DNA from: Candidatus Yanofskybacteria bacterium
GTDB lineage: Bacteria > Patescibacteriota > Minisyncoccia > 2-02-FULL-40-12 > IGHO2-12-FULL-4
NCBI GenBank assembly: GCA_016185525.1
Contig: JACPNK010000005.1
Span: 92,473 to 156,472, forward strand
DNA: 64,000 bases
Reading direction: 5' to 3'
The notes beneath the pieces were generated by a model. The model saw nothing but the letters and a program-made list of their open reading frames with translations, made no database searches and was not told the DNA's origin. Positions 1,530-62,140 of this stretch are shown piece after piece (the stretch's first letter is position 1; the number at the start of each line of letters is the position of its first letter). A program made the translations under genes and the position numbers.

Positions 1530-2282
1530 ATGTTGAAAAACTTTTTGAGAATCGCCGGTTTTTTGAGTCTGCTTTTCGGCGGCCAGTTCACGCTGACCGC
1601 CATGGCCCAAGGCGACCTGGGTCGAGTGGTCCAGGGAAACTTGGACATCATTTCCAGAAACCACATCCGAGGGGATGTGGCCAATCTGGAAGCCCAGATC
1701 CATAGCCTCATTTACCACGAGCGCTACGGGTATGGATATCTCGATGATGGTTATTTCTACGGGACCGACCAGTACGGTCGGGGTAACCGTGGAAGAGTTC
1801 ACATCAGCCCCATTGAAGTCGGGATTGGTGGGGCCATGATTGGTGGATCGGTCGATGGTTGGCGAGGTGCCGCTATCGGTGGAACTGCCGGCTACTTCGG
1901 GACCAAGGCTGTAAAGGCCGTTGTCCAACACAAACGCAACAAGCGAGAACAGAAGGAAGCCGAAGCCATGGCCGCCCAAGCGCAAGCGGAAGCTCAAGCC
2001 ATGCTCGAGAAAAAATTCTTCTGGAACGACACCGAGTCCGTGAATGCCGGGGTTTTTTATCAGGACAATAACGGTACCCAGTATGTCCGGGTGGGTCCTG
2101 GACAAAAAATCCTGCTGTTTATTCTGCCTGGCTCCAATGTTGGTGTTATGGCCGAGGGAGTAGTAACACCCAGTGGCCGGACCATCAACAAAGAGATCCC
2201 CTACGGCAAGGGGAAACAGTTCCTCCCAGCCAATGCTGGCTGGCGAATTTTCAACGTCCAGCTGGACAAGCTGGACTGGTAA
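1530..2282 (+). CDS. secreted glycine-zipper domain protein (signal peptide plus GGAMIGGSVDGWRGAAIGGTAGYFG); GC-rich relative to neighbouring genes
   Basis: N-terminal signal peptide. Gly-zipper-like segment. Has its own promoter and RBS. High GC3 codon usage unlike its neighbours. Confidence 0.6.
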   Translation: MLKNFLRIAGFLSLLFGGQFTLTAMAQGDLGRVVQGNLDIISRNHIRGDVANLEAQIHSLIYHERYGYGYLDDGYFYGTDQYGRGNRGRVHISPIEVGIGGAMIGGSVDGWRGAAIGGTAGYFGTKAVKAVVQHKRNKREQKEAEAMAAQAQAEAQAMLEKKFFWNDTESVNAGVFYQDNNGTQYVRVGPGQKILLFILPGSNVGVMAEGVVTPSGRTINKEIPYGKGKQFLPANAGWRIFNVQLDKLDW

Positions 2283-2297
2283 AGAAAGGATAAAAAA

Positions 2298-2669
2298 ATG
2301 AGAGCAAGTGGGCAAATCGTTATGGGTGGCAGAAGAATCGCCACTCAAAATTTTCATGTTCTTGGGCCGGGTGGTGGGACCTGGTGGGTGAAGTATTCTT
2401 GGTGGGTGATACCACTGGGAGTGGTGTTGTTGGTCCTACCGGCAGTCGGCTACTGGTCCGGGGCAAGGGTTTTTTCCTTCTCCGGTCAGACGACCACCTC
2501 TGCGCCGGCGGTAATGACACCACAACCGATTGTAGTAACACCGGTACCGGTTGTGATTCAATCACCACCACCGCCGGCACTAACAACTCCTTCAGCTCTG
2601 GGCGAAGCGGAAGAGGCTGGTGTAAAGCCTCCTCCTAAGCCCAAAAGCTTGTGGGAGTTAAACCCCTAG
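2298..2669 (+). CDS. small membrane protein with a Pro/Thr-rich C-terminal tail; GC-rich
   Basis: Transmembrane segment WWVIPLGVVLLVLPAVGYW, then a PQPIVVTPVPVVIQSPPPPALTTP tail. Co-oriented with the 1530 gene. Confidence 0.5.
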   Translation: MRASGQIVMGGRRIATQNFHVLGPGGGTWWVKYSWWVIPLGVVLLVLPAVGYWSGARVFSFSGQTTTSAPAVMTPQPIVVTPVPVVIQSPPPPALTTPSALGEAEEAGVKPPPKPKSLWELNP

Positions 2670-2697
2670 TGTATTTCTCTGGCCAAGAATTTCGGCC

Positions 2698-2727
2698 ACC
2701 CTGCACCATCCGGTACAGGGTTTTTTT
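2698..2727 (+). terminator. hairpin plus T-tract terminator after the GC-rich gene pair
   Basis: ccctg ... caggg stem followed by ttttttt. Confidence 0.5.
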
Positions 2728-2755
2728 ATCCAGAAAAAGTTACTCCTGAACAAGA

Positions 2756-3016
2756 TTATCGGTAAATATCTTTGCGGTTTGCAACTCTGATTAACTGGAC
2801 TGTGTCGGGACTAAGAAGTTGAAAAATCACCCGGTAGTCACGGGTGATTCGGAAAGAGTAGAAACCAGACAAATCTGCGGAGAGCTGTTTAGTATGCAAA
2901 AGCGGATGAAAAATATTTTGTTCAAGCAAAGCTGTCTGGGTGTCAAGTTTGTTCTGGATTTTATCTGGCAAGTCCTTAGCTGACTTAAGAAATACCCTAG
3001 TAAAAACAACTCTCAT
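2756..3016 (-). CDS. type II toxin, RelE/ParE family
   Basis: Translation ...GFYSFRITRDYRVIF...LIRVANRKDIY is typical of RelE/ParE. It overlaps the upstream small gene by 4 bp (ATGA). Confidence 0.75.
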   Translation of the reverse strand: MRVVFTRVFLKSAKDLPDKIQNKLDTQTALLEQNIFHPLLHTKQLSADLSGFYSFRITRDYRVIFQLLSPDTVQLIRVANRKDIYR

Positions 3017-3234
3017 TTAACTTTTTTGATAGCTTCCAGCAGAGAACCGCAACCATTGAAAGTATGAGTGGGTTTTTCCTTGGCTGCTCTTAAAATTTTA
3101 CGAACAAAGACAGGATTGTACTCTCCCTCTTCATCACGGCCAAGCATGCCAATCACTAGCGAACGCATTATGCCCATCTCTCTTTTAATGGTTGAAATCT
3201 CAGAATAAATTTTTTCGTTAGTAACTCTATTCAT
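3013..3234 (-). CDS. putative cognate antitoxin of the adjacent RelE/ParE toxin
   Basis: 73-aa ORF immediately upstream of the toxin and translationally coupled to it. The fold is not recognised from sequence alone. Confidence 0.45.
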   Translation of the reverse strand: MNRVTNEKIYSEISTIKREMGIMRSLVIGMLGRDEEGEYNPVFVRKILRAAKEKPTHTFNGCGSLLEAIKKVK

Positions 3235-3306
3235 AATTCAACTATACTCCAATTACGAATAAAGTCAAAAATTGAAAAATAAGTACAAAAAAGATAAGAT
3301 AAAGTT

Positions 3307-3759
3307 ATGAAGTTTTTGTCAAAGAGTCCTAAAGAAACGCAAAAAGCGGCGGGAGTTCTGGCTAAGAAAATAACCCGAAAAACTTTGCAAAAAAGAACTG
3401 CTTTGGTGCTGGGTTTGGAAGGGGAGCTTGGCGCCGGCAAAACTACTTTCGTGAAAGGTTTTGCCAAAGGTCTAGGCCTCAAAAACAAAATTTCTAGCCC
3501 GACTTTTGTTTTAATAAAGTCTTATAACTTAAAACTTACGACTTATAACAACCTCTTCCACATTGACGCCTACCGGCTTAAAGACCACGAGGATTTAATC
3601 AGGCTGGGCATAAAAGAAATTTTTAGTAATCCCAAAAATTTAATCTTAATTGAATGGTCAGATAGAGTAAGAAAAATATTGCCAAAAAACTATCTTAGAA
3701 TTCACATAGACCACATAGACGAGAATGAAAGAAAAATTGTTATAGAAAATGACAAATGA
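3307..3759 (+). CDS. tsaE: tRNA threonylcarbamoyladenosine biosynthesis protein TsaE (YjeE-type P-loop ATPase)
   Basis: LGLEGELGAGKTTFVKG Walker A followed by SPTF. Size 150 aa. Confidence 0.8.
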   Translation: MKFLSKSPKETQKAAGVLAKKITRKTLQKRTALVLGLEGELGAGKTTFVKGFAKGLGLKNKISSPTFVLIKSYNLKLTTYNNLFHIDAYRLKDHEDLIRLGIKEIFSNPKNLILIEWSDRVRKILPKNYLRIHIDHIDENERKIVIENDK

Positions 3760-3870
3760 CAAAACTCAAATGACAAATCAATGACAAAATCTAAAATCTT
3801 AAATTTATTAGTTTGACATTTGAGCTTTGGATTTGAATTGTCATTAGTCATTTGGATTTAGTCATTAACT
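3745..3870. repeat. iterated AATGACAAA repeats (4 direct copies, 3 inverted copies) spanning the tsaE stop and the region upstream of polA
   Basis: aaatgacaaatgacaaaactcaaatgacaaatcaatgacaaaatc ... ttgtcattagtcatttggatttagtcatt. A similar string caaatgacaaatgacaaaaatcttaaaac recurs at 55565-55600, where it forms the 5' end of fba. Confidence 0.5.
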
Positions 3871-3871
3871 T

Positions 3872-6490
3872 ATGAAGAAACTCATTCTTATTGACGCCAA
3901 CGCTTTGGTCCACCGAGCCTTTCATGCTTTACCGCCCCTGACCTCACCTCAAGGCATGATTGTTAACGCAGTCTATGGCTTTACCTCGGTATTGCTTAAG
4001 ACCATCAAAGATATGCAACCGGACTATATGGCCGCCGCTTTTGATTTGGCCGGACCGACTTTCCGCCACGAAGAGTTTGAAGAATACAAAGCTCACCGCC
4101 AAAAAGCGCCCGATGAACTTTATGCCCAAATACCTCTGATCAAAGAGGTGTTGCAATCTTTCGGTGTTGAAATTTTTGAAAAAGAAGGCTTTGAGGCCGA
4201 CGATTTAATCGGCTCTCTGGCGGAAAAATCAAAAAAAATTCAACAAGACGACGGTCTTCAAACAATAATTTTAACCGGAGATCTGGACACCCTCCAACTG
4301 GTAGAAGAAGACAAAGTGGTTGTTTTTACTTTGAGAAAAGGCGTAACCGACACCGTTATTTACAATGAAAAGGGCGTCAAAGAAAGATACGGCCTGGAAC
4401 CTTATCAAGTTGTGGATTTCAAAGGATTGAAAGGCGATCCGTCAGACAATATTCCCGGAGTGCCAGGTATCGGTGAAAAGACGGCCATAACCTTGTTGCA
4501 GAAATACGGCACAATAGAAAATTTATACAAAGAACTGGCTAAAATAAAAGAATTTAAAAAAGGCGATGCCATAAGCGTTAAACTCGCAGAAAAATTAAAA
4601 GAAAACGAAAAGCAGGCAATTTTTAGTAAAAAATTGGCGACAATCGTTACTAATCTTGACATTGATTTTTCGTTGGAGAAAGTAAGCTGGAAAAATAAAT
4701 ATGACAAAACAACAGTTATTCAAATCCTGAAAAAATTAGGTTTTAACAGCTTGCTTGCCCGTCTTCCGAATGGACGAGCACCTCTATCCGAACTTGACAC
4801 GATAAAAAACAAAAACCAAGCCGAAAATCAAGGGAGTGAGCAAAAAAGCTTGGGTTTTAATGAGTCACAGCCTTTGATTTTACAAAACTCCGACCCGAAT
4901 GCCGTTTACTTAAACGGCAATACTACTATACCGGAAAAAGTATCTTCAAGACTTAAGGACATTTTAGAAGATAAAAGCATTGCCAAAAGAGGGCATAACT
5001 TAAAGCCTGTTGTTAAACTTCTTCTAGACCAAGGCGTTCGCATTAAAAATCTTGACTTTGATACAGCTGTGGCGTCTTACTTGGTGAGGCCGGAACTTAA
5101 AAATTACGATTTAGACAAAATCTACTTTGTGGAATTCGCCCAGTCTTTTACAGACATGGGTTCGGCCTTGCCGAAATTAGTGAAAGTTCTTGAGAAGAAG
5201 CTAAAAGAAAAAGAGTTGCTTAAAGTTTTTGAAGAAATTGAGATGCCTTTGATTCCCGTCTTAGCGGAAGTGGAAAGAAACGGCATCAAAATTGATACGG
5301 CTGGTTTAGAAAAATTGTCAGAAAAAGTAAATTATGAAATTACCGGCTTAGAAAAGAAAATTTATGAGCAAGCTCGCCTGCCGGACGAGCAAGCTGGACA
5401 AGAATTTAATATCAACTCACCCCAGCAACTCGGAGAAATTCTTTTTGACAAGCTTCAACTTAAAACCAGAGTCAAGAAAACCAGCGGGGGAGCCCGTTCC
5501 ACAGCCGTCTCCGAACTTGAAAAACTGGTTGACGAACATCCGATAATTGAACTGATAATGCAGTACCGAGAGCTTCAAAAACTAAAAACGACCTACATCG
5601 AACCGTTTCCAGCCTTAATTAACCGGAAAGACCATCGCATACATACCACGTACAACCAAATGGGTACAGTTACCGGCAGACTTTCCAGCCAGGACCCAAA
5701 TTTACAGAATATTCCCGTTCGCACTGAACTTGGGCAAGAGTTTAGAAAGGCCTTTGTCGCTGAAAACGGCTGGCAACTTTTATCCCTTGACTACTCACAA
5801 ATTGAATTAAGAATAGCCGCTTATCTGTCAGGCGACCGGAAGATGCTTGAGGCTTTCCAAAACAAGGAAGATATTCATACCCGTACGGCCGCCGAGGTCT
5901 TTGAGGTCAGTCCAGACAAAGTTACTCCTCAAATGCGCCGACAAGCCAAAGCCCTGAATTTTGGCATTTTATTTGGTATGGGTGTCCTTGGCTTCGCCCG
6001 TTCCGCTGGAGTAGACAAAATGCGTGCCCGAGAGTTCATCACAAAATATTTAAAAAAGTTTTCCGGCATGGCCGCCTACATGGAAAAAGCTAAGACTGAA
6101 GCTAGAGAAAAAGGTTTTGTCCAAACCTACTTCGGCAGAAGAAGAGACTTACCAGAGATAAATTCCAGCATGCCCCACATGGTGGCCCAAGCCGAGAGAA
6201 TGGCCGTCAATGCCCCGATTCAGGGAACAGAGGCTGATATAATGAAACTAGCCATGATAGGGGTTTACAATTTCATCCACGAAAATAAACTTGAAGATGA
6301 AGCTAAAATTTTACTGCAAGTTCACGATGAGCTATTATGCGAGGTGAAAGAGGAAAAGACGGCAAAAATCGCATTGAAATTCAAAGAAATCATGGAGAAC
6401 ATTTGGTCTCCTAACGCGCAAAAGGGGCAGGTCAAAGTACCCGTAGTAGTTGAAACTAAAGTCGGGAGAAATTGGTCAGAAATGTCATGA
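3872..6490 (+). CDS. polA: DNA polymerase I (5'-3' exonuclease domain plus polymerase domain)
   Basis: Motifs DYSQIELR and QVHDELL. N-terminal FEN-like domain. 872 aa. Confidence 0.95.
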   Translation: MKKLILIDANALVHRAFHALPPLTSPQGMIVNAVYGFTSVLLKTIKDMQPDYMAAAFDLAGPTFRHEEFEEYKAHRQKAPDELYAQIPLIKEVLQSFGVEIFEKEGFEADDLIGSLAEKSKKIQQDDGLQTIILTGDLDTLQLVEEDKVVVFTLRKGVTDTVIYNEKGVKERYGLEPYQVVDFKGLKGDPSDNIPGVPGIGEKTAITLLQKYGTIENLYKELAKIKEFKKGDAISVKLAEKLKENEKQAIFSKKLATIVTNLDIDFSLEKVSWKNKYDKTTVIQILKKLGFNSLLARLPNGRAPLSELDTIKNKNQAENQGSEQKSLGFNESQPLILQNSDPNAVYLNGNTTIPEKVSSRLKDILEDKSIAKRGHNLKPVVKLLLDQGVRIKNLDFDTAVASYLVRPELKNYDLDKIYFVEFAQSFTDMGSALPKLVKVLEKKLKEKELLKVFEEIEMPLIPVLAEVERNGIKIDTAGLEKLSEKVNYEITGLEKKIYEQARLPDEQAGQEFNINSPQQLGEILFDKLQLKTRVKKTSGGARSTAVSELEKLVDEHPIIELIMQYRELQKLKTTYIEPFPALINRKDHRIHTTYNQMGTVTGRLSSQDPNLQNIPVRTELGQEFRKAFVAENGWQLLSLDYSQIELRIAAYLSGDRKMLEAFQNKEDIHTRTAAEVFEVSPDKVTPQMRRQAKALNFGILFGMGVLGFARSAGVDKMRAREFITKYLKKFSGMAAYMEKAKTEAREKGFVQTYFGRRRDLPEINSSMPHMVAQAERMAVNAPIQGTEADIMKLAMIGVYNFIHENKLEDEAKILLQVHDELLCEVKEEKTAKIALKFKEIMENIWSPNAQKGQVKVPVVVETKVGRNWSEMS

Positions 6491-20887: not shown

Positions 20888-21070
20888 TTACTACCTCCTT
20901 TTTTGACAAAAACCGACTGAAACGAAAGTTCAGCCCACATCATACCATATCTTATCGTTGTTGTAAATAGCAACAACAAACAAGATAACAAAAAAGCCCA
21001 TATTCAGGCTATTTCTTACTCTTAAACTCTTATTAAAATTTTTCTTTTCTGCTTCTATAAAATATGGTTT

Positions 21071-21138
21071 CCTCTAGAGGCGGGGTTTTCGGGGAAGTGA
21101 AACTTTTCACTTTCCCTCAATACCCTTCTCATCCCACC
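21071..21138. repeat. conserved ~68-bp tRNA-flanking element, copy at tRNA-Leu (second copy at 30489-30556)
   Basis: cctctagaggcggggttttcggggaagtgaaacttttcactttccctcaatacccttctcatcccacc is ~80% identical to the copy next to tRNA-Ser(GCT). It contains the agtgaaa..ttcact hairpin and ends in an inverted partial copy of the tRNA T-arm. Confidence 0.6.
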
Positions 21139-21190
21139 AAAACAGATAATTAACAATACCTTCAAAAGGAAGATATTGTTAATTCCTGAT

Positions 21191-21274
21191 GTGCTCGGGG
21201 TGGGATTCGAACCCACATGGGCTTGCGCCCACAGCATTTTAAGTGCTGCGTGTAAACCATTCCACCACCCGAGC
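21191..21274 (-). tRNA. tRNA-Leu (anticodon TAA), long variable arm
   Basis: Hand-folded: acceptor GCTCGGG/CCCGAGC, anticodon loop CTTAAAA, T-arm GGGTTCGAATCCCAC. Confidence 0.8.
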
Positions 21275-28790: not shown

Positions 28791-28875
28791 TGGCGGAGGA
28801 TGCAGGAGTCGAACCTGCAAGGGATTGCACCCGGCGGTTTTCGAAACCGCTGCCATGCCATTAGGCGAACCCACC
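28791..28875 (-). tRNA. tRNA-Ser (anticodon CGA), CCA encoded
   Basis: Hand-folded: acceptor GGTGGG..., anticodon loop TTCGAAA, long variable arm, T-arm GGTTCGACTCC, 3' CCA. Confidence 0.7.
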
Positions 28876-29567: not shown

Positions 29568-30266
29568 TTATTTCGTAAATCCGAAAGTCCCCGTAATCTG
29601 GTCAATAAAGAAAGTTTTGTTGGCTAAGACAGAAACACTTTCTTGAGGTATACCATTATTGCCTGTGTAAAATTGGAATAATTTACCATCTTTGATGAAC
29701 TCAATGTCCCGCTCTTTATTTCCGACGCCCTCTCCCTCGGACATTTCAAAAGTATTTACGATAGCTTTAACACCGCCGATAGTTTTATATGAGGTCACAC
29801 AATTCGAATTTGATGAACATGCCCTTTCTTCAATGGTTTTGGATGGACTTGGATCAACTATTTGAAAACCAACAAACATGTTCTGTCGGTCATAAAAATT
29901 TTTCTGTTTCTGTTGTAATTTACTATCTTGAAAATAGAATGAAAAAGTATTTAATTTATTGTTGTAAAGTGGTGGTTCCTGTTTTTGTTCTTGAAAACCT
30001 TCAACTATCCAATCTTGTGGATACTGAACTTCAAAACCATATTTTTCACTTCTATATATTTGCCAACCAGGAATTTTATTTGATGATTGTGTGTTGTTTG
30101 AGGTTGTCGGTTTTTCGGCAGTCTGGTTATTCGTTGGGGCTGGGGTATTGATCTGTTGAGCAATTTCCGGCGATTTTTTCACAAATGCAAAATACCCCAC
30201 TACACCAGCAAGCACTACAACTAAAACTATGAGAACAATATTCACAAATCCTTTTTGTTGGTTCAT
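29568..30266 (-). CDS. membrane-anchored secreted protein of unknown function
   Basis: N-terminal TM/signal anchor. Low-complexity T/N/Q linker. No recognisable domain. Confidence 0.45.
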   Translation of the reverse strand: MNQQKGFVNIVLIVLVVVLAGVVGYFAFVKKSPEIAQQINTPAPTNNQTAEKPTTSNNTQSSNKIPGWQIYRSEKYGFEVQYPQDWIVEGFQEQKQEPPLYNNKLNTFSFYFQDSKLQQKQKNFYDRQNMFVGFQIVDPSPSKTIEERACSSNSNCVTSYKTIGGVKAIVNTFEMSEGEGVGNKERDIEFIKDGKLFQFYTGNNGIPQESVSVLANKTFFIDQITGTFGFTK

Positions 30267-30420
30267 GTGTTTAAAATTAATTTCTTAATTATGCAAAAAT
30301 TTCTTTTGCCCTTCACTCTCAAATCCTTTTCCTTTTCGCCAAAAAAGCCTTTTCAAATCCTATGCGAGCGGCGCATCTCGCGCCGCGAGCTGACCTCTTC
30401 AAATTTGCATTTTCCCAACT

Positions 30421-30439
30421 GGCGGAGGGAGTGGGAGTC
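30421..30439 (-). repeat. direct repeat of the 3' end of tRNA-Ser(GCT); identical 18 nt are also at 30611-30628
   Basis: gcggagggagtgggagtc occurs twice, 189 bp apart, in the same orientation. This is the pattern of an att-site duplication at a tRNA gene. Confidence 0.6.
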
Positions 30440-30449
30440 CTCTTCCTCC

Positions 30450-30487
30450 GAAAATTTCTATATGCCTAAAGGCATATAGAAATTTTC
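30450..30487. repeat. perfect palindrome with 17-bp arms
   Basis: gaaaatttctatatgcc-taaa-ggcatatagaaattttc. A second palindrome, gcataaatagttagc-aaaa-gctaactatttatg, lies at 30574-30606. Confidence 0.7.
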
Positions 30488-30488
30488 T

Positions 30489-30556
30489 CCTCCAGAGCCG
30501 GGGTTTTCTAAAAAGTGAAATTATTCACTTTTTCTCAATACCCTTCGACTCCCACT
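30489..30556. repeat. conserved ~68-bp tRNA-flanking element, copy at tRNA-Ser(GCT)
   Basis: cctccagagccggggttttctaaaaagtgaaattattcactttttctcaatacccttcgactcccact. The hairpin agtgaa-attat-ttcact is flanked by A and T runs, so it looks like a bidirectional terminator. It ends in an inverted copy of the tRNA-Ser T-arm (ttcgactcccact). Confidence 0.6.
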
Positions 30557-30611
30557 CTTGCATCGACAAGTAGCATAAATAGTTAGCAAAAGCTAACTAT
30601 TTATGTACATG

Positions 30612-30697
30612 CGGAGGGAGTGGGAGTCGAACCCACCTGACCCCTTTCGGGGTCGGAGATTAGCAATCTCCTGCACCAGCCGATATGCGCCCCCTCC
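30612..30697 (-). tRNA. tRNA-Ser (anticodon GCT)
   Basis: Hand-folded: acceptor GGAGGGG/CCCTCC(T), anticodon stem-loop GGAGA-TTGCTAA-TCTCC, long variable arm, T-arm GGTTCGACTCC. Confidence 0.75.
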
Positions 30698-30722
30698 AAA
30701 TTCACCAAATTTTACCATATTT

Positions 30723-31475
30723 TTACCCTTTGGCAACGACCAAACCGATGACTTTTTTTGCTCCGGCTTCTTTTAATATCCGAGCGCATTCGTCTAGGGT
30801 TGCTCCAGTGGTGGCAATGTCATCCACCAAAACGACTGTTTTGTTTTTTATTTTTTCCGGCCTGGGGCAGACAAATATGCCTTCCGTATTTTTTATCCTT
30901 TCTTCTTTGTTTTCTATCTCCGCTTGAGGCTTTTTATTTTTTGTCCTCTCCAAAACACCAACAGCAATTTCTAATTTAAATTCCCCGGCCAGCTCTTCGG
31001 CTAAAAGTTCTGACTGATTGTAAGAGCGCCAGTTAAGCCTTAAGCGGTGCAGGGGCAGGGGAATAAGGACAACCTCGCTTCGGTAACTGTCAAAAAAGCG
31101 GTCTTTGTTTTTTTCTTTTAAAAACTTTATCAGAAGTTTGCCAAGGGGTTTTTTTGCCGAAACTATAAACTTATATTTTAAAGCCCAAAGCATTTTTTTG
31201 ACTAAAGGTTCTTCGTAACTGGCGGCTATCCAGATAAAGTCCAAGTAATGATTCTTTTTGCAAAATGGGCAGGTTTCGCCCTGGCTGGCCGGGGATGAAC
31301 AGAAGGCGCACTCAAAACCTTTTCTTAAGTTTATTTTTTCAAAACAAAGCCGGCAGAGGTGTTTGTCGGGGTCAGAAGCATTTTGTATTTGGCGGCAACC
31401 AAGGCAGTGAATAGGGAAAAGAAGGTCAAACAAAAAGTCCTTTAGGCTTTCTATGGATAACTTGCACAACTTCAT
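30723..31475 (-). CDS. comFC: competence protein ComFC (double zinc-ribbon plus phosphoribosyltransferase domain)
   Basis: CLGCRQ...CRLC...C..C N-terminus. PRTase motif VLVDDIATTGATL. Confidence 0.75.
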   Translation of the reverse strand: MKLCKLSIESLKDFLFDLLFPIHCLGCRQIQNASDPDKHLCRLCFEKINLRKGFECAFCSSPASQGETCPFCKKNHYLDFIWIAASYEEPLVKKMLWALKYKFIVSAKKPLGKLLIKFLKEKNKDRFFDSYRSEVVLIPLPLHRLRLNWRSYNQSELLAEELAGEFKLEIAVGVLERTKNKKPQAEIENKEERIKNTEGIFVCPRPEKIKNKTVVLVDDIATTGATLDECARILKEAGAKKVIGLVVAKG

Positions 31476-39033: not shown

Positions 39034-39062
39034 TGTTACAATTATCCATAGGACAACTAGTA

Positions 39063-39116
39063 AGCATGCCTCTTTTATAGTCGACAGCGACAGTTCGGCG
39101 CAAAAAAGAGGCATGC
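39063..39116 (+). promoter_or_regulatory. SD/start-codon-sequestering hairpin, copy 1 (14-bp stem, 26-nt loop) spanning the pilD start
   Basis: agcatgcctctttt ... aaaagaggcatgct. The right arm supplies AAGAGG plus the pilD ATG (39113). The left arm has the anti-SD-like CCTCTT. Loop is atagtcgacagcgacagttcggcgca. Confidence 0.55.
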
Positions 39117-39991
39117 TCACTAGTTATAGCAACTCTGTTATAAATATGTTTTTGCTTACTACAATTTTTCTGCTGGGCTTAACTGTTGGCAGTTTTTTGA
39201 ATGTTCTTATTTACCGTTTACCGAGGACTGTCCTCAGTAAGCGACTGAGGACAGTCCTCGGGAGCATTGTTTATGGCCGATCCAAATGTCCAAAATGCAA
39301 GCATGTTTTGGCTTGGTACGATCTTGTTCCTCTTTTCAGCTTCATTTTTTTGAAAGGCCGGTGCCGTTATTGCAAAAAACCCTTTTCTGGACGGTACTTT
39401 TTTGTGGAAATTTTGACAGGTTTATTGTTTTTAACTTTCTTTGCTTTGCAACGGCCCGGTAGCCTCTACGGATATCTGGATCTTTCTTTTTGGCTCTTTG
39501 TTTTCTCAACACTATTGGTTTTGGCTTTCATTGACTTGGACTATTTTATTATTATTGATAAAATATTGATAGTTTTAGTTCTTATTACATTTTTGTATCA
39601 AGTTTTTAGGAAATACGTCGTCCTGGCAGAACCGGCGACCATCGGAGGAATTTTTAACATATATCCCAACCTGCTGACTGCTTTTTTGTCTGGCCTGATT
39701 TTTCTTTTAATTTTTTGGGCCACTAAGGGTAGGGGCATAGGACTGGGAGACGTAAAGTTTATTTTTGTTTTGGGGTTTTTGCTGGGTTTTCCCGGTATTC
39801 TGATTGTTGTTTATCTTTCTTTACTTGCCGGCATGATTTGGGGACTGGCGCTAATTTTATTTTTCGGCGCCTCAATGAAGTCAAAGATCGCTTTTGGCTT
39901 TATCCTGGCTAATGCTGCCATTGTTTTTATGCTTTTTAACCAGTTTTTAACAGCAAAGTTCGCGCCTTATATTTTTAGACTGTATCTCTAG
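39113..39991 (+). CDS. pilD: prepilin peptidase / N-methyltransferase PilD (A24 family)
   Basis: YRLP...CPKC...CRYC zinc-binding N-terminus. Polytopic. Contains the in-frame 41-bp perfect palindrome at 39221-39261. Confidence 0.8.
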   Translation: MLTSYSNSVINMFLLTTIFLLGLTVGSFLNVLIYRLPRTVLSKRLRTVLGSIVYGRSKCPKCKHVLAWYDLVPLFSFIFLKGRCRYCKKPFSGRYFFVEILTGLLFLTFFALQRPGSLYGYLDLSFWLFVFSTLLVLAFIDLDYFIIIDKILIVLVLITFLYQVFRKYVVLAEPATIGGIFNIYPNLLTAFLSGLIFLLIFWATKGRGIGLGDVKFIFVLGFLLGFPGILIVVYLSLLAGMIWGLALILFFGASMKSKIAFGFILANAAIVFMLFNQFLTAKFAPYIFRLYL

Positions 39992-40035
39992 CTTTTATCA
40001 AAAAATAATGAAAAAGATTTTAATTAGAACCGAAG

Positions 40036-40090
40036 CAAATGCCTCTTTTGCAGTTGGCGGCGACAGTCCGACGCAAAAAAGAGGCATTTG
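40036..40090 (+). promoter_or_regulatory. SD/start-sequestering hairpin, copy 2 (arms covary with copy 1)
   Basis: caaatgcctctttt ... aaaagaggcatttg. Loop is gcagttggcggcgacagtccgacgca. The arms differ from copy 1 (gcatg vs caaat), but the change is compensated on the opposite arm. Confidence 0.55.
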
Positions 40091-40566
40091 CGAAGGTTTG
40101 CACTAGTTTGAAAAAAAAAGAAGATAAGAAAAAAGTTAAATATTACGTAATTCTAATCGGCATCGGCTTGGGATTTTTGCTTTTTCTGGATTTGTTTACT
40201 TTGGGCTCCAACATTTTTAATTTGAAAAAGATCCAGACGACGGAATTTAAAAGAACCGCAGAGGTCAGAATTTCTGGTCAGACGGGTGAAACCAGAACGT
40301 TTTCGGGTGAAGTAGTTGAGAATATGACGGTGTTGGATGCTCTTCTTGCCGCCGCCCAAAGCGCCAACTTTAACGTTGATTACCTTATTGCGAATGGAGA
40401 GCTGGATATCCGTTTAATTAACGGTTTGCCGGAGTCACCGGTTATGTTTTGGAATGTTTACTTAAATGGCGCGCCTATTAGCATTAAAAATTTGAATTCA
40501 CTTGAAATTGAGAATGGCGACCTTGTTGAATTTAAGCTTAAGCCTGTTGTAAATGAAAATAAATAA
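40039..40566 (+). CDS. secreted/membrane-anchored hypothetical protein. The true start may be the TTG at 40105 downstream of the hairpin rather than the ATG at 40039 inside it.
   Basis: KKKEDKKKVKYYVILIGIGLGFLLF signal-anchor. No recognised domain. Confidence 0.45.
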   Translation: MPLLQLAATVRRKKEAFAKVCTSLKKKEDKKKVKYYVILIGIGLGFLLFLDLFTLGSNIFNLKKIQTTEFKRTAEVRISGQTGETRTFSGEVVENMTVLDALLAAAQSANFNVDYLIANGELDIRLINGLPESPVMFWNVYLNGAPISIKNLNSLEIENGDLVEFKLKPVVNENK

Positions 40567-42591: not shown

Positions 42592-44598
42592 ATGCTTTTA
42601 AATGAAGCCAAAAATAGAATAGAAAAGCTAAAAATTCTTATTAACAAATACCGTCACAGCCGGTTAGTTTTTGATAAGCCGGTAGTGGAAGAGTCGGTTG
42701 AGGACTCTCTCAAGAAAGAACTTTTTGACTTGGAGCAGGCTTTTCCGGGGCTGATAACGCCGGATTCTCCGACGCAGAGGGTCGGCGGAGCGCCCCTCAA
42801 AGAATTTAAAAAATTTGTCCATCCCGAAAGGATGCTCTCTTTTAACGACGCGTTTGGAGAAAAAGATATGCTGGATTGGGAGGAGAGACTAAAAAGAATT
42901 GACCCGCGCGCGACTGAAGGCGGCTTTTATTGCGAGCTTAAAATAGACGGACTAGCCATAGGGCTTTTGTACAAAGATTCTGTTTTCCAAACAGGCGCTA
43001 CGCGCGGGGACGGTTTGGTGGGCGAAGATGTGACCCAAAACTTAAGAACAATTGAAGCGGTTCCTCTTAACCTTACAATGGGCATCATTGCAAATGCAAT
43101 GATGCCCATTGTAGTTCGGGGAGAAGTTTTTATTACTAAGAAAGAATTTGAGAGAATCAACAGAGAACAAAAGTCCAAAAGCATTTCTGCTTATGCCAAT
43201 CCGCGCAATTTGGCTGCCGGTTCAGTCAGGCAGTTGGATCCCAAGATAACCGTGAGTCGAAGGCTTGATTCTTTTGCTTACGCTTTGGTTACCGACCTGG
43301 GCCAGCAAACGCACGAAGATGAACATAAAATCCTTCACCGACTTGGTTTTAAAACCAATCCCCACAATAAGTTTTGCCGTAATCTGGCGGAGGTTCAGGA
43401 GTTTAGAGACTACTGGGAAAAACACAGAGAAAGGTTGGACTACGAAATTGACGGAATTGTTGTTCAGGTGAACAGCAATCAGATGTTCAAAAAGTTGGGT
43501 GTCGTCGGCAAAGCGTCCAGAGCCGCCATTGCTTACAAATTTTCTCCAAAAGAATCCACGACTAAGGTTAAAGATATAACCGTCAGTATTGGCCGGACCG
43601 GAACAGTTACTCCGATTGCAATTTTGGAACCGGTTGAGATCGGCGGTACGACTGTTTCTCGCGCAACACTGCACAACGAAGACGAGATTAGGCGTCTGGA
43701 TGTTAGAGTGGGGGATACGGTTGTTGTCGGCCGGGCCGGCGACGTTATTCCCGATATTAAAAAAGTTCTTAAAGAGTTGCGCGTCGGTCGTGAGAAGATT
43801 TTTCACTTTCCGGAAAAGTGTCCGGTATGCGGCCAGCCAATCAAGAGAATTGAGGGCGAAGCGGCTTTTAAGTGTGTGAATAAAAATTGCTCGGCTATCA
43901 AGCGTGAGGGAATTTACCACTTTGTGTCCAAGGGAGCGATGAACATAGACGGCGTCGGCCCGAGGATTGTTGACCAGTTGATGGATGTCGGGTTAATCAG
44001 GGATTCAGCCGACCTCTATACTCTTAAGAAGTCAGATCTTCTTAATCTTGAACGTTTTGCCGACAAATCAGCTGAAAACACGATTAACTCCATCAATTCA
44101 CGCAAAGAGGCGGCTCTTGACCGATTTGTTTTTGCTTTGGGTATCCCTCATGTTGGATCGGAAACGGCTCTTGATTTGGCTCGCAACTTTGGCTCGCTAG
44201 AGAATATTAGCAAGGTTAGTCTGGAGGATCTTTTGAAAATAAAGGATGTCGGGCCTGTTGTGGCTAAAAGTATTTACGACTGGTTTCGTTCTGACCATAA
44301 TCAAAAACTTTTGAAAAAATTCACTTCGGCGGGTTTACGTGTTCTTAAGCAGGAGTTGGTTCAAAAGTCCTCAAAGTTGAAAGATAAAACTTTTGTTTTT
44401 ACCGGCACCTTGGAAGAGTTGACCAGAGAAAAAGCCGAGGAGTTGGTCAGGGAACATGGCGGCAATGTTTCATCTGCGGTATCCAAAGAAACCGCCTATG
44501 TCGTGGCAGGAGAAGAATCCGGTTCCAAATTCAGTAAAGCCAAGAGGCTGGGCGTGAAAATTATTGACGAAAGAAACTTTCTTGACATGATAAAGTAG
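42592..44598 (+). CDS. ligA: NAD-dependent DNA ligase
   Basis: KxDG adenylation motif (CELKIDGLAI). Zn-finger CPVCGQP. HhH. C-terminal BRCT. Start placed at the ATG at 42592. Confidence 0.9.
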   Translation: MLLNEAKNRIEKLKILINKYRHSRLVFDKPVVEESVEDSLKKELFDLEQAFPGLITPDSPTQRVGGAPLKEFKKFVHPERMLSFNDAFGEKDMLDWEERLKRIDPRATEGGFYCELKIDGLAIGLLYKDSVFQTGATRGDGLVGEDVTQNLRTIEAVPLNLTMGIIANAMMPIVVRGEVFITKKEFERINREQKSKSISAYANPRNLAAGSVRQLDPKITVSRRLDSFAYALVTDLGQQTHEDEHKILHRLGFKTNPHNKFCRNLAEVQEFRDYWEKHRERLDYEIDGIVVQVNSNQMFKKLGVVGKASRAAIAYKFSPKESTTKVKDITVSIGRTGTVTPIAILEPVEIGGTTVSRATLHNEDEIRRLDVRVGDTVVVGRAGDVIPDIKKVLKELRVGREKIFHFPEKCPVCGQPIKRIEGEAAFKCVNKNCSAIKREGIYHFVSKGAMNIDGVGPRIVDQLMDVGLIRDSADLYTLKKSDLLNLERFADKSAENTINSINSRKEAALDRFVFALGIPHVGSETALDLARNFGSLENISKVSLEDLLKIKDVGPVVAKSIYDWFRSDHNQKLLKKFTSAGLRVLKQELVQKSSKLKDKTFVFTGTLEELTREKAEELVREHGGNVSSAVSKETAYVVAGEESGSKFSKAKRLGVKIIDERNFLDMIK

Positions 44599-56520: not shown

Positions 56521-57216
56521 ATGCGAAAAGTTGAGATAAAAGCAGAAAAAAGAAGCGTGGTCGGCAAGTCTATGGCCGGTATTATGGGCCGTGGCTTTTT
56601 GCCTGCGGTAATTTACGGCCACGATTTTAAATCAACTCCTGTTCAGGTGAATCTTAAAGATTTTGAAAGAGCTTATCTGGAGGCCGGAGAGTCCTCTCTG
56701 GTTTATGTAAATTTGGACAGTAAAGATTTGCCGGTGATTATTCACGACGTTGCCAGAAACCCAATTTCCGATAGATTTATTCATGCTGATTTTTATAAAG
56801 TTAATTTGGCTGAAAAAATTACTGCTGATGTGCAATTGATTTTTATCGGCGAAGCTCCGGCAGTTAAAGATTTTGCCGGCATTTTGGTTAAGAATGTAAA
56901 TGAAGTTAAAGTTGAGGCTCTGCCTCAAAACTTGCCGCACGAAATTCAAGTTGATATTTCTGCGCTGAAAAATTTTACCGATCAGATTTTAATCAAAGAC
57001 CTTAAACTGCCAAAAGGCGTTGAGGTTAAAGAAAAGCCGGAAGAAATTATTGCGCTTATTCAGGAGCCAATTTCACAGGAAGAACTGGACAAGCAGTTGG
57101 CCGTACCGGAAGCTGGTGTGGCTGAAGTTGAGGTAATCAAGAAAGAAAAAGAAGCTGAAGAAGGCGAAGCAGTTGTTGCAGATGAAGGAGAGGTTGGAGA
57201 AAAAAAGAACTCATAA
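56521..57216 (+). CDS. rplY: 50S ribosomal protein L25 / general stress protein Ctc (with an acidic C-terminal extension)
   Basis: MRKVEIKAEKRSVVGKSMAGIMGRGFLPAVIYGH. Confidence 0.85.
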   Translation: MRKVEIKAEKRSVVGKSMAGIMGRGFLPAVIYGHDFKSTPVQVNLKDFERAYLEAGESSLVYVNLDSKDLPVIIHDVARNPISDRFIHADFYKVNLAEKITADVQLIFIGEAPAVKDFAGILVKNVNEVKVEALPQNLPHEIQVDISALKNFTDQILIKDLKLPKGVEVKEKPEEIIALIQEPISQEELDKQLAVPEAGVAEVEVIKKEKEAEEGEAVVADEGEVGEKKNS

Positions 57217-57230
57217 AAATAAACCCCACT

Positions 57231-57258
57231 TAGTGGGGTTTATTTTTATTTCAAGTAC
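57231..57258. terminator. bidirectional terminator between rplY and the convergent gene
   Basis: aaaccccac-tta-gtggggttt followed by atttttattt. Confidence 0.7.
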
Positions 57259-61957: not shown

Positions 61958-62060
61958 CAGGAAAGGGCTGGACAATTCCCTCAACTCCCGCCATGCACCG
62001 CGTGGGGTGCATGGTTGCCCTGAATCCTACGTGGTTCAGGGCGTCACACCCTACAAATCA

Positions 62061-62087
62061 AAAAGATGGCCAGTTGCCATCTTTTTG
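62061..62087 (+). terminator. terminator after tRNA-Trp and the structured trailer
   Basis: agatggc-cagtt-gccatct followed by ttttt. Confidence 0.65.
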
Positions 62088-62140
62088 ATTTATGATAGTA
62101 TCATCCCAAATTTGATCTTTGAAAATTAAAGGAGAAAAAA

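Follow-up and report, generated by a model that had tools for sequence, protein, structure and literature searches.

The tRNA-Ser(GCT) locus

The window analysed here (the whole stretch of DNA, 64 kb long, with a GC content of 41.5%) comes from Candidatus Yanofskybacteria and carries, on the minus strand, a tRNA-Ser(GCT) gene whose 3' end is followed by a short structured block at 30421-30611. This block is occupied by a 171-nt element without a plausible open reading frame (ORF), here called F1, together with a second copy of the tRNA 3' end; a sister family, F2, stands behind tRNA genes in related genomes. The closest public relatives of the PilM protein encoded nearby come from Candidatus Yanofskybacteria and from metagenome-assembled genomes of Paceibacterota. 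The features of the locus, in minus-strand order, are:

30709-30736, minus strand: promoter-like site upstream of tRNA-Ser(GCT), with TTGCCA, a 16-nt spacer and TG-n-TAAAAT
30611-30697, minus strand: tRNA-Ser(GCT) (ARAGORN; Rfam tRNA, 35.5 bits)
30611-30628, minus strand: proximal repeat copy, the last 18 nt of the intact tRNA-Ser(GCT), positions 57-74
30440-30610, minus strand: F1 proper, the unique part of the insertion, 171 nt (alignments, nhmmer)
30571-30609, minus strand: hairpin H1, with 14-bp perfect arms (30574-30587/30592-30605) and loop TTTT
30544-30557, minus strand: anti-target GAGTGGGAGTCGAA, complementary to tRNA positions 54-67
30500-30543, minus strand: Domain 1, a predicted GGG/CCC closing helix enclosing hairpin HA (folds)
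30510-30533, minus strand: hairpin HA, with 10-bp arms (30510-30519/30524-30533), like AAAAAGTGAA..TTCACTTTTT
30440-30499, minus strand: Domain 2, made of the invariant linker GGCTCTGGAGGA, hairpin HB and the invariant tail GGAGGAAGAG adjoining the distal repeat
30450-30487, minus strand: hairpin HB, with 18-bp arms (30450-30467/30470-30487) and a 2-nt loop (equivalent to 17 bp with a 4-nt loop)
30420-30439, minus strand: displaced original tRNA 3' end, the distal repeat 30422-30439 (positions 57-74) plus CA (30421-30420)

The tRNA gene is intact without splicing according to both ARAGORN and Rfam. Its last 18 nt, GCGGAGGGAGTGGGAGTC, form an exact direct repeat at 30422-30439 and 30611-30628. 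The proximal copy is followed by AT, so that the intact tRNA-Ser(GCT) encodes no CCA. The distal copy ends in ...CCGCCA, as do both neighbouring Ser tRNAs, which encode CCA; with its CA, the displaced end reads ...CCCTCCGCCA. At up to three mismatches, 0.03 matches are expected from shuffled sequences, and the observed count was reached in 0 of 100 shuffles.

Read away from the tRNA on the minus strand, the first half of the block consists of the tRNA end ...CCGC, the dinucleotide AT, H1, the anti-target, GGGTATTGAG and HA; the second half continues from HA with AGAAAACCCCGGCTCTGGAGGA, HB, GGAGGAAGAG, the repeat of positions 57-74 and CA. The stem of H1 gains three more pairs past a one-base bulge (a bulged C), and HA resembles a weak bidirectional terminator. 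The anti-target is an inverted copy of the T-arm: its 14 nt (TTCGACTCCCACTC at 30544-30557) are 100% complementary to 30618-30631, and the tRNA positions concerned, 54-67, span the T-loop, the T-stem's 3' half and the first part of the acceptor strand. It could pair with the proximal copy over 14 bp or with the distal copy over 11 bp. Compared with shuffled sequences, the block folds with z = -11 on the minus strand and z = -14 on the plus strand.

All the sequence features that an earlier note on this DNA had listed are present in the block. The exact 18-nt repeat at 30422-30439, the palindrome with 17-bp arms at 30450-30487 and the inverted T-arm copy are as it described them, and its first palindrome needs a small correction, the perfect arms being of 14 bp rather than 15. 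The bounded segment was likewise rightly said to hold no ORF: no plausible one was found in the 171-nt element, where ORFs only overlap. Searches of Rfam 15 at permissive E-values, with the window block and the F2-bearing loci L005 and L114 (loci from other assemblies are designated by L numbers), returned tRNAs only, apart from chance matches far below the cut-off. A viral collection searched with the tRNA 18-mer, an F1 17-mer, F2 18-mers and a gapped F2 core pattern yielded no free or attP form; its matches were a phage tRNA cluster or chance matches within phage coding genes. The promoter-like site agrees with the consensus at 10 of 12 positions and has an extended -10 TG (a consensus scan, reporting match to consensus only); it is the sole promoter-like site able to drive tRNA-Ser(GCT) and F1.

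Empty sites in related genomes

The comparison set consists of 28 genome loci and 80 metagenome loci, reached through the adjacent PilM gene; the order tRNA-Ser(GCT), ComF, PilM is kept across them. In L064, the end of ComF and the promoter are as in the window, and a tRNA-Ser(GCT) is followed directly by the flank that stands after the distal repeat in the window, with 189 bp missing. In L004 and L046, the closest relatives by PilM (94%), tRNA-Ser(GCT) ends in CCA and the block is absent. The check for empty sites suggested by the earlier note thus found them in L064 and L004 (and L046), of which L064 and L004 are the valid empty-site comparisons for F1. A further candidate, L024, was withdrawn: the flank that it has in common with the window is the mobile inverted repeat of a serine-recombinase element.

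The block at 30421-30611 is therefore a genuine, discrete insertion relative to related genomes. It amounts to 189 bp, namely the 171-nt element and the 18-nt repeat of tRNA positions 57-74. Two placements of the insertion point are equally compatible with this duplication, one within the T-loop (between positions 56 and 57) and one behind position 74. A tRNA that looks functional and lacks CCA is completed by the element-proximal copy, and the original end, with its CCA and the native downstream sequence, is displaced. The junction of an empty allele would read ...GGGTTC-GACTCC...CCGCCAGTTGG, and that of a circular form GGAGGAAGAG-GACTCCCACTCCCTCCGC-ATGTAC. A short-read Logan contig from the same organism (L001) stops inside the proximal repeat (...CCCACTCC); it may break off there because the assembly graph branches between occupied and empty alleles, or just because coverage is low.

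Copies of F1 and compensatory changes

F1 also occurs 3' of tRNA-Ser(GCT) in L005 (PilM 87% identical) and L047 (PilM 78%). Its 171 nt are 90-94% identical in these two loci, with nhmmer E-values of 6e-57 to 2e-53 across the three genomes. The likeness ends exactly at the end of the distal repeat, beyond which lie three unrelated flanks. In the alignment of the three copies the single-stranded linkers are invariant, and H1, HA and HB differ through compensatory double changes: H1 is retained in L047 by three of them, a G-C pair of the HA stem has become A-U in L047, and many positions of HB have changed in L047 with the pairing retained.

A further copy was found in the window by an F1 hidden Markov model (HMM):

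21064-21184, minus strand: truncated second copy of F1, 3' of tRNA-Leu(TAA) (21191-21274) (nhmmer)

The HMM match (21064-21137, E = 1.8e-12) lies 54 nt 3' of the tRNA and represents the F1 core. Ahead of it stand a hairpin (21148-21184) and an anti-target, GGTGGGAT, which matches the T-stem of tRNA-Leu; HB and the distal repeat are missing. In the HA stem of this copy, AA..UU is replaced by GG..CC. Pattern searches of the window for other copies of the F1 hairpins found none, and only the HMM revealed the tRNA-Leu copy. This copy gives substance to the claim that a 68-bp part of the block is a conserved element.

The block was also considered as a degenerate tandem copy of the tRNA. This was rejected, the anti-target being the complement of the asymmetric T-loop TTCGACT and not a direct copy. 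The HMM matches to a core already speak against F1 and F2 being no more than tandem-duplicated remnants of tRNAs that have no core in common.

A sister family that follows its target tRNA

The scan covered every one of the 105 distinct tRNA contexts of the fetched loci. In 14 of the 105, at least 9 nt of the tRNA's own 3' end recur as an inverted copy within 200 nt downstream, compared with 1 of 105 in the upstream control; direct repeats of tRNA 3' ends are also recurrent. The F2 family is recognized by a GC-rich core, whose HMM gave 18 matches at E <= 1. Of the 16 matches with E < 0.01, all but one follow a tRNA of the same strand at 35-155 nt on its 3' side; the exception lies at 885 nt, where a cargo ORF stands between tRNA and core. 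The targets are tRNA-Ser(GCT), Ser(TGA), Ser("ACT"), Leu(TAA) and Asp(GTC), and related elements are found at Arg(GCG).

F2 is built like F1. The tRNA end lacks CCA and is usually followed by A; after it come a hairpin, a complement of the tRNA, two hairpin domains and the repeat. The first hairpin is perfect yet variable in sequence. The anti-target, of 9-21 nt, is the complement of the local T-loop, T-stem and often the acceptor 3' strand, and is usually found 51-60 nt after the tRNA (10 of 14 cases). The first repeated tRNA position is 56-58, except in one case, where it is 60. Across both families the duplication measures 17-29 nt and the elements 110-190 bp, and none has an ORF or a recombinase. 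A clean pair of occupied and empty sites is provided for F2 by L106 and L107 at tRNA-Asp, with an identical upstream flank and ~89% identity downstream; the duplication there is of 29 nt and includes 10 nt of the host trailer.

The same tRNA has been hit independently more than once, by different elements in different genomes: tRNA-Ser(GCT) by F1 or by F2 subfamilies a, b and c, and tRNA-Leu(TAA) by F1, F2a or F2c. In most of the 18 elements tested, the anti-target matched its own tRNA best or tied-best; nearly all ties involve tRNAs with almost identical 3' ends, and the copy in L055 is degenerate. By our reading of the sequences, the elements of L031 (at Ser-ACT) and L105 (at Ser-GCT) have a nearly identical first core domain, whereas their target-matching segments differ. 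The inverted T-arm copy is a family-wide feature that changes with the target tRNA.

Several loci show more complex arrangements around F2. In L113 (1042-1240), an F2 element and an 18-nt repeat follow a 5'-truncated tRNA-Ser fragment, just downstream of an intact tRNA-Ser(GCT). L031 (2680-4753) carries a tandem array made of tRNA-Ser("ACT"), an F2 mini-element, a repeat with CCA, 1.8 kb of further sequence and a third repeat with CCA. The 1.8-kb unit encodes a 119-aa ORF and a 266-aa membrane protein, and its right end resembles the 3' hairpin of F2; the anticodon ACT, assigned by ARAGORN, is itself unusual. In the window, tRNA-Ser(CGA) (28791-28875) has a U3-U70 mismatch in its acceptor stem. 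Its orthologue in L005 (2310-2392; ~94% identity over 627 bp, including the adjacent toxin-antitoxin genes) has the anticodon TGA, another T-stem and acceptor 3' strand, full Watson-Crick pairing and an F2 element. This difference may reflect a past swapping of the 3' end.

Predicted structure and strand

When 14 F2 cores were folded independently, each gave one and the same two-domain shape: a closing helix with a GGA/GA internal loop bears hairpin A, and a long helix, P3, bears hairpin B, whose loop is often GGAA (GNRA-like). The closing helix covaries (GCC:GGC, AGC:GCU, GGC:GCC). P3 shows double compensatory changes at 6 of 9 pairs, with 96% of cells paired and two conserved G.U pairs. P3 scores 0.67 for covariation, a value that none of 500 shuffles attains (0.29 in shuffles), on an alignment taken from per-sequence folds and hence biased towards structure; slid controls collapse. 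RNAalifold, run on a MAFFT alignment of the F2 cores, recovered the closing helix only, because the variable hairpins are out of register.

The sense (tRNA) strand folds more stably than its complement in 16 of 16 elements, with more G.U pairs. When the trailer is folded alone, the anti-target is predicted to close on the distal repeat in 12 of 13 cases, forming a junction around the two domains and leaving 4-9 nt single-stranded, CCA included where it is encoded. In the members with an anti-acceptor segment (several F2), the predicted helix runs through the acceptor strand and leaves only NCCA, as in the acceptor stem of a tRNA. The closure of F1 is of 11 bp, with the tail CCUCCGCCA single-stranded. 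An RNA reading of the F1 and F2 structures appears the more likely one.

Nature and movement of the elements

We consider it probable that F1 is a member of a tiny, ORF-less, non-autonomous family that is located only at tRNA 3' ends in Candidatus Yanofskybacteria. The earlier note had named a small non-autonomous tRNA-targeting element as one of two options, and this is the option favoured by the empty sites, the recurrence in L005 and L047, the tRNA-Leu copy and the sister family. As judged from their sequence comparison, F1 and F2 are under structural constraint and are not decaying scars. The family is previously undescribed, literature searches having given no description of such elements.

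F1 sits between the tRNA body and the native trailer and would be co-transcribed from the tRNA promoter, because it lies inside the tRNA transcription unit. This placement is suggested by the native terminator-like hairpins that follow the distal copy in several loci (L005, L106 and L055). CCA is an anti-determinant for RNase Z, and since the regenerated tRNA end lacks it, RNase Z would cut this end free. Enzymatic addition of CCA would be needed anyway, because 7 of the 10 tRNA genes in the window lack an encoded CCA. In the released trailer RNA, the anti-target would then pair with the displaced tRNA 3' end and close the junction around the two domains.

Lacking a recombinase of its own, F1 must depend on recombination for its spread or on factors acting in trans for its movement. 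No tyrosine or serine recombinase gene was detected in the 64-kb window by motif scan or by tblastn with the Xer-like and the large serine recombinase of relatives; among the window and all the loci, the motif scan picked up Xer-like tyrosine recombinases in L012, L015, L069, L088 and L090 alone. By analogy with tyrosine integrases, the most likely mechanism of movement may be a trans-acting site-specific recombination in the T-loop, in which the element supplies the 3' end; we propose it tentatively. The earlier note had seen in the repeat the scar of an integrase: the geometry of the repeats does fit, and the likeness is a resemblance only, no integrase being present in or near the element.

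A broader reading, which we regard as possible, though less likely than not, is that F1 and F2 together form a new class of mobile, tRNA-dependent non-coding RNA genes. Such a gene would insert in the T-loop and donate a CCA-less 3' end, so that the tRNA survives, and would take over the tRNA promoter, the native acceptor 3' strand, the CCA and the terminator for its own RNA. This RNA would consist of two structured domains, with a tRNA-like acceptor/T helix closing it. The target-complementary segment would let the family move among Ser, Leu, Asp and Arg tRNAs, and this movement may use an undescribed RNA-guided or single-strand-guided mechanism.

Several points weigh against these proposals. 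Full copies of F1 number only three, and the sample represents one genomic neighbourhood of one lineage. The distal repeat has diverged in the Arg, L105 and L055 copies and so is not always conserved. The tRNA-like closure of F1 is only 11 bp long and is lost in the L005 fold, and the bias of the P3 alignment has been mentioned. Single-stranded attC sites were once called as RNA motifs (PMC5737381); single-stranded DNA structures can give the same covariation and G.T pairs, so the RNA reading is not proven. No recombinase or transposase is associated with any copy of the elements. The basis is comparative throughout, for transcription and processing as well as for movement. Finally, the presence of the same core with different repeats and the 10 nt of trailer in the tRNA-Asp duplication fit a copying of the target better than a simple attP.

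These last observations point to the strongest of the alternatives, in which the target is duplicated at insertion by a transposase, a casposase-like enzyme or a target-primed retro mechanism, and the anti-target serves as guide or annealing site. The 18-29-nt duplication would result from cuts that are staggered, one at 56/57 in the T-loop and the other at the tRNA 3' end or past it. Long target duplications are made by Cas1-type integrases at tRNA 3' ends, and variable ones arise in target-primed retrotransposition. The repeats always equal the local tRNA, even with nearly identical cores (L031 vs L105), the tRNA-Asp repeat runs 10 nt into a host-specific trailer, and the left boundary is fixed at 56/57 with a variable right boundary, all of which would be expected here. 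However, no transposase, Cas1 or reverse transcriptase was seen in the loci examined (a search that was not exhaustive), the terminal inverted repeats are tRNA-derived only, and a guide that must change with each new target is left unexplained. We regard target duplication as unlikely, while ranking it above the alternatives that follow.

Integration of a folded single strand by a host tyrosine recombinase, as for attC sites or the attP(+) of CTX-phi, has a smaller chance still. Here the proximal copy of the 3' end and the inverted copy, joined by H1, would form a duplex mimicking the tRNA T-arm, which the recombinase would recombine with the real tRNA gene. The order direct-hairpin-inverted-direct, with the inverted copy at a near-fixed distance (~51-60 nt, 10 of 14), agrees with it, as hairpin integration leaves direct repeats at the ends and an inverted copy near one end. 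The ORF-less and cargo-bearing tandem units of L031, each ending in a copy of the repeat, and the lack of an internal recombinase recall integron cassettes, and the asymmetry of strand folding is also expected of a recombinogenic single strand. Against this, there is no integron-type integrase or attI context, the conserved two-domain core (GNRA-like GGAA loops, conserved G.U) is left without a role, the paired arms are separated by a large internal loop (9 x 12 nt in F1), and retargeting is again unexplained.

The other option of the earlier note, a decayed remnant of a larger integrase island (attL and attR with ~170 bp of junk left after an internal deletion), is very unlikely. The regenerated tRNA with its displaced direct 3' fragment has the geometry of islands in tRNA genes (principle in PMC4383910), and larger cargo-bearing inserts bounded by tRNA repeats do exist in L078 (1.8 kb), L031 (1.8 kb) and L026. 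However, the 171 nt are 90-94% conserved where PilM is only 78-87% identical, with invariant linkers and compensated hairpins, which is structural constraint and not decay. A homologous core stands at another tRNA of the same window, ~18 mini-elements have the same ordered architecture, on which independent deletions would not converge, and the block contains no relic of an integrase.

A local rearrangement would involve no mobility at all: replication would have switched templates at the T-arm palindrome and left an inverted triplication of the tRNA 3' end, which drifted later. The direct-inverted-direct order of the three copies is the signature of template-switch rearrangements; nevertheless, the sequences between the copies belong to a conserved family with homologues at other tRNAs and in other genomes, and independent rearrangements would not yield the same core, which makes this origin highly improbable. 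Least credible of all is a native, vertically inherited tRNA trailer (a terminator or processing structure): AT-rich perfect hairpins are indeed common after genes in this window and HA is like a weak bidirectional terminator, but empty sites with the same flanks (L064, L004, L046), different element families at the same tRNA in different genomes and the 18-nt tRNA duplication with CCA on the distal copy would all be left unexplained.

Two other candidates were rejected. An intron in the T-loop or a group I intron is at odds with the intact tRNA and the lack of a catalytic core (group I introns of bacterial tRNA genes sit in the anticodon loop, interrupt the tRNA and have a conserved P3-P9 core); no Rfam intron match was obtained at E <= 1 to 5 for these elements of 110-190 nt. 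A scaffold and guide like those of TnpB and its omega RNA would carry a guide that matches the occupied allele too.

For the proposed family of tRNA-dependent RNA genes, several consequences may be considered. If the elements are expressed, they would represent a new structured RNA family in bacteria of the candidate phyla radiation (CPR), and an RNA gene that borrows half of a tRNA acceptor stem. CPR genomes are tiny, so every retained non-coding element deserves attention. Should movement rely on a guide or on a folded strand, the programmability of the match to the target would be interesting for its mechanism and perhaps for technology. Programs that look for tRNAs and islands are misled by the CCA-less Ser tRNA genes and the tRNA 3' fragments to which the elements give rise.

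The flank and the serine tRNA hotspot

Directly beyond the insertion lies an element of another kind, called FE:

30287-30421, minus strand: flank element FE, outside F1, a solo ~135-bp terminal inverted repeat (blastn)

FE is 92-97% identical to sequences in L074, L079, L024, L109 and L122 (blastn), and L022 is also among the loci with similar sequences adjoining the CCA of Ser tRNAs. Its parent is a 1.6-kb large-serine-recombinase element that adjoins the CCA end of Ser tRNAs in relatives. In L074 (1835-3455) and L079 (2150-3771), two inverted copies of FE surround a 507-aa ORF, which is a large serine recombinase (Pfam Resolvase, Recombinase and Zn_ribbon_recom). The junction of this element in relatives reads ...CCGCCA, then ATTGGGAAAATG, at Ser tRNAs, and its recombinase ORF runs through one of the repeats, antisense into the tRNA. 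A 74-aa ORF in the flank of the window (30255-30479) is a relic of the recombinase C-terminus. Beyond FE is encoded a protein of 232 aa, which has a hydrophobic segment at its N-terminus and matches PsbP_2 weakly.

This region had been taken for an accessory islet. A toxin-antitoxin pair is indeed present, with a ribbon-helix-helix (RHH) protein that passes the Pfam cut-off and a weak RelE-like match, both common to L005; the first 135 bp of the flank proved instead to be the solo terminal inverted repeat of the serine-recombinase element.

In relatives, GC-rich hairpin repeats (TTCGSC..GTCCGCCA) are found directly after the CCGCC of Ser tRNAs (L010, ~2300-2650; L016 and L072, ~2050-2430; L022; L078, 1920-2260; L047, ~1200-1300), often followed by a 78-aa protein with a GIY-YIG domain only (Pfam E = 2e-13). 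L078 also carries, at 2222-4084, a gene for a 468-aa FAD-binding oxidase between ~110-bp inverted repeats, whose outer ends, GGATTCG and CGAATCC, are T-loop sequence. A 19-nt copy of the tRNA-Ser(GCT) 3' end, 1843 nt away from the tRNA, marks the border of this unit.

At least three kinds of insert thus share the 3' ends of Ser tRNAs as a hotspot, the GC-rich hairpin repeats with their GIY-YIG genes being the third.

Elsewhere in the window, perfect palindromes with 13-19-bp arms are numerous in intergenic regions (43074-43113, 57213-57249, 39221-39261, 62055-62091 and others), and two pairs of 22-nt inverted repeats with the motif GCCTCTTTT/AAAAGAGGC lie at 39055-39125 and 40028-40098.

Comparison with known systems

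tRNA genes are the classic targets of islands that carry an integrase. The genomic islands and prophages that tyrosine integrases place in tRNA genes, of the T-loop/T-stem class, such as the islands collected by Islander or mycobacteriophage Ms6 in tRNA-Ala, have several features in common with F1: the target is split and receives a replacement 3' end from the element, the tRNA is regenerated and a direct 3' fragment displaced, and the block of identity extends from the T-loop to the 3' end. Tandem accretion at the same tRNA is common to islands and to F1 and F2. In a survey of islands, attP was in the T-stem region in 1836 of 3919 cases, and islands were defined by carriage of an integrase, with size peaks at 13.6 and 39.9 kb (PMC4383910). 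The site geometry of T-loop-class tyrosine integrases is also set out in another study (PMC1762012). Measured by the features that Islander uses, F1 presents the regenerated tRNA and the displaced fragment, and lacks the integrase and the kilobase size with cargo. The elements differ from islands in their size (110-190 bp), in the inverted copy of the target, in the conserved structured core and in having no integrase nearby. The tRNA-regenerating logic of islands would thus be used by gene-less elements ~100x smaller than a typical island.

Integron cassettes (attC) integrate, like the attP of CTX-phi, through a folded hairpin. An attC hairpin is marked by R''-L''/L'-R' boxes and goes with an intI integrase and a nearby attI. 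These systems resemble F1 and F2 in being small, recombinase-less and arranged in arrays, with a folded hairpin conserved in structure; the units of F1, too, are bordered by a direct repeat and have an inverted copy close to one of their ends. A hairpin with an internal loop is present in F1, tandem units occur in L031, and no integrase adjoins the arrays. Unlike integron cassettes, F1 and F2 show no intI or attI, are targeted to the tRNA T-loop and possess an additional two-domain core.

MITEs (miniature inverted-repeat transposable elements), REP/BIME, Correia and RPE sequences and the IS200/IS605-derived PATEs are, like F1 and F2, short, ORF-less, rich in hairpins, present in multiple copies and presumably moved in trans. 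MITEs, which derive from DDE transposons, have family-specific terminal inverted repeats, 2-10-bp target duplications and many sites, whereas the duplications of F1 and F2 are of 17-29 nt and lie at tRNA 3' ends only, in one orientation. The sole terminal inverted repeat of F1 (30429-30439 with 30547-30557) is tRNA sequence and varies with the target tRNA. In the IS200/IS605-derived palindrome elements, subterminal hairpins are found at both ends and insertion takes place 3' of a short motif, with no target duplication; F1 does have an 18-nt duplication, and its hairpins H1 and HB bear no sequence relationship to each other.

The predicted RNA of F1 and F2 would resemble tRNA-like RNAs that tRNA-processing enzymes mature (the tRNA-like domain of transfer-messenger RNA, mascRNA and viral 3' structures) in its acceptor-type helix with a single-stranded CCA tail. 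One strand of this helix would come from a 5' segment and the other from the 3' end, and the remainder of the RNA would lie in between; the likeness is one of working and not of membership. Unlike these RNAs, F1 and F2 have no T-loop and no Rfam homology, and their 3' strand is borrowed from the host tRNA gene. The full ordered architecture that defines the F1/F2 family is found at 30420-30628, and its homologues are recognized by HMM.

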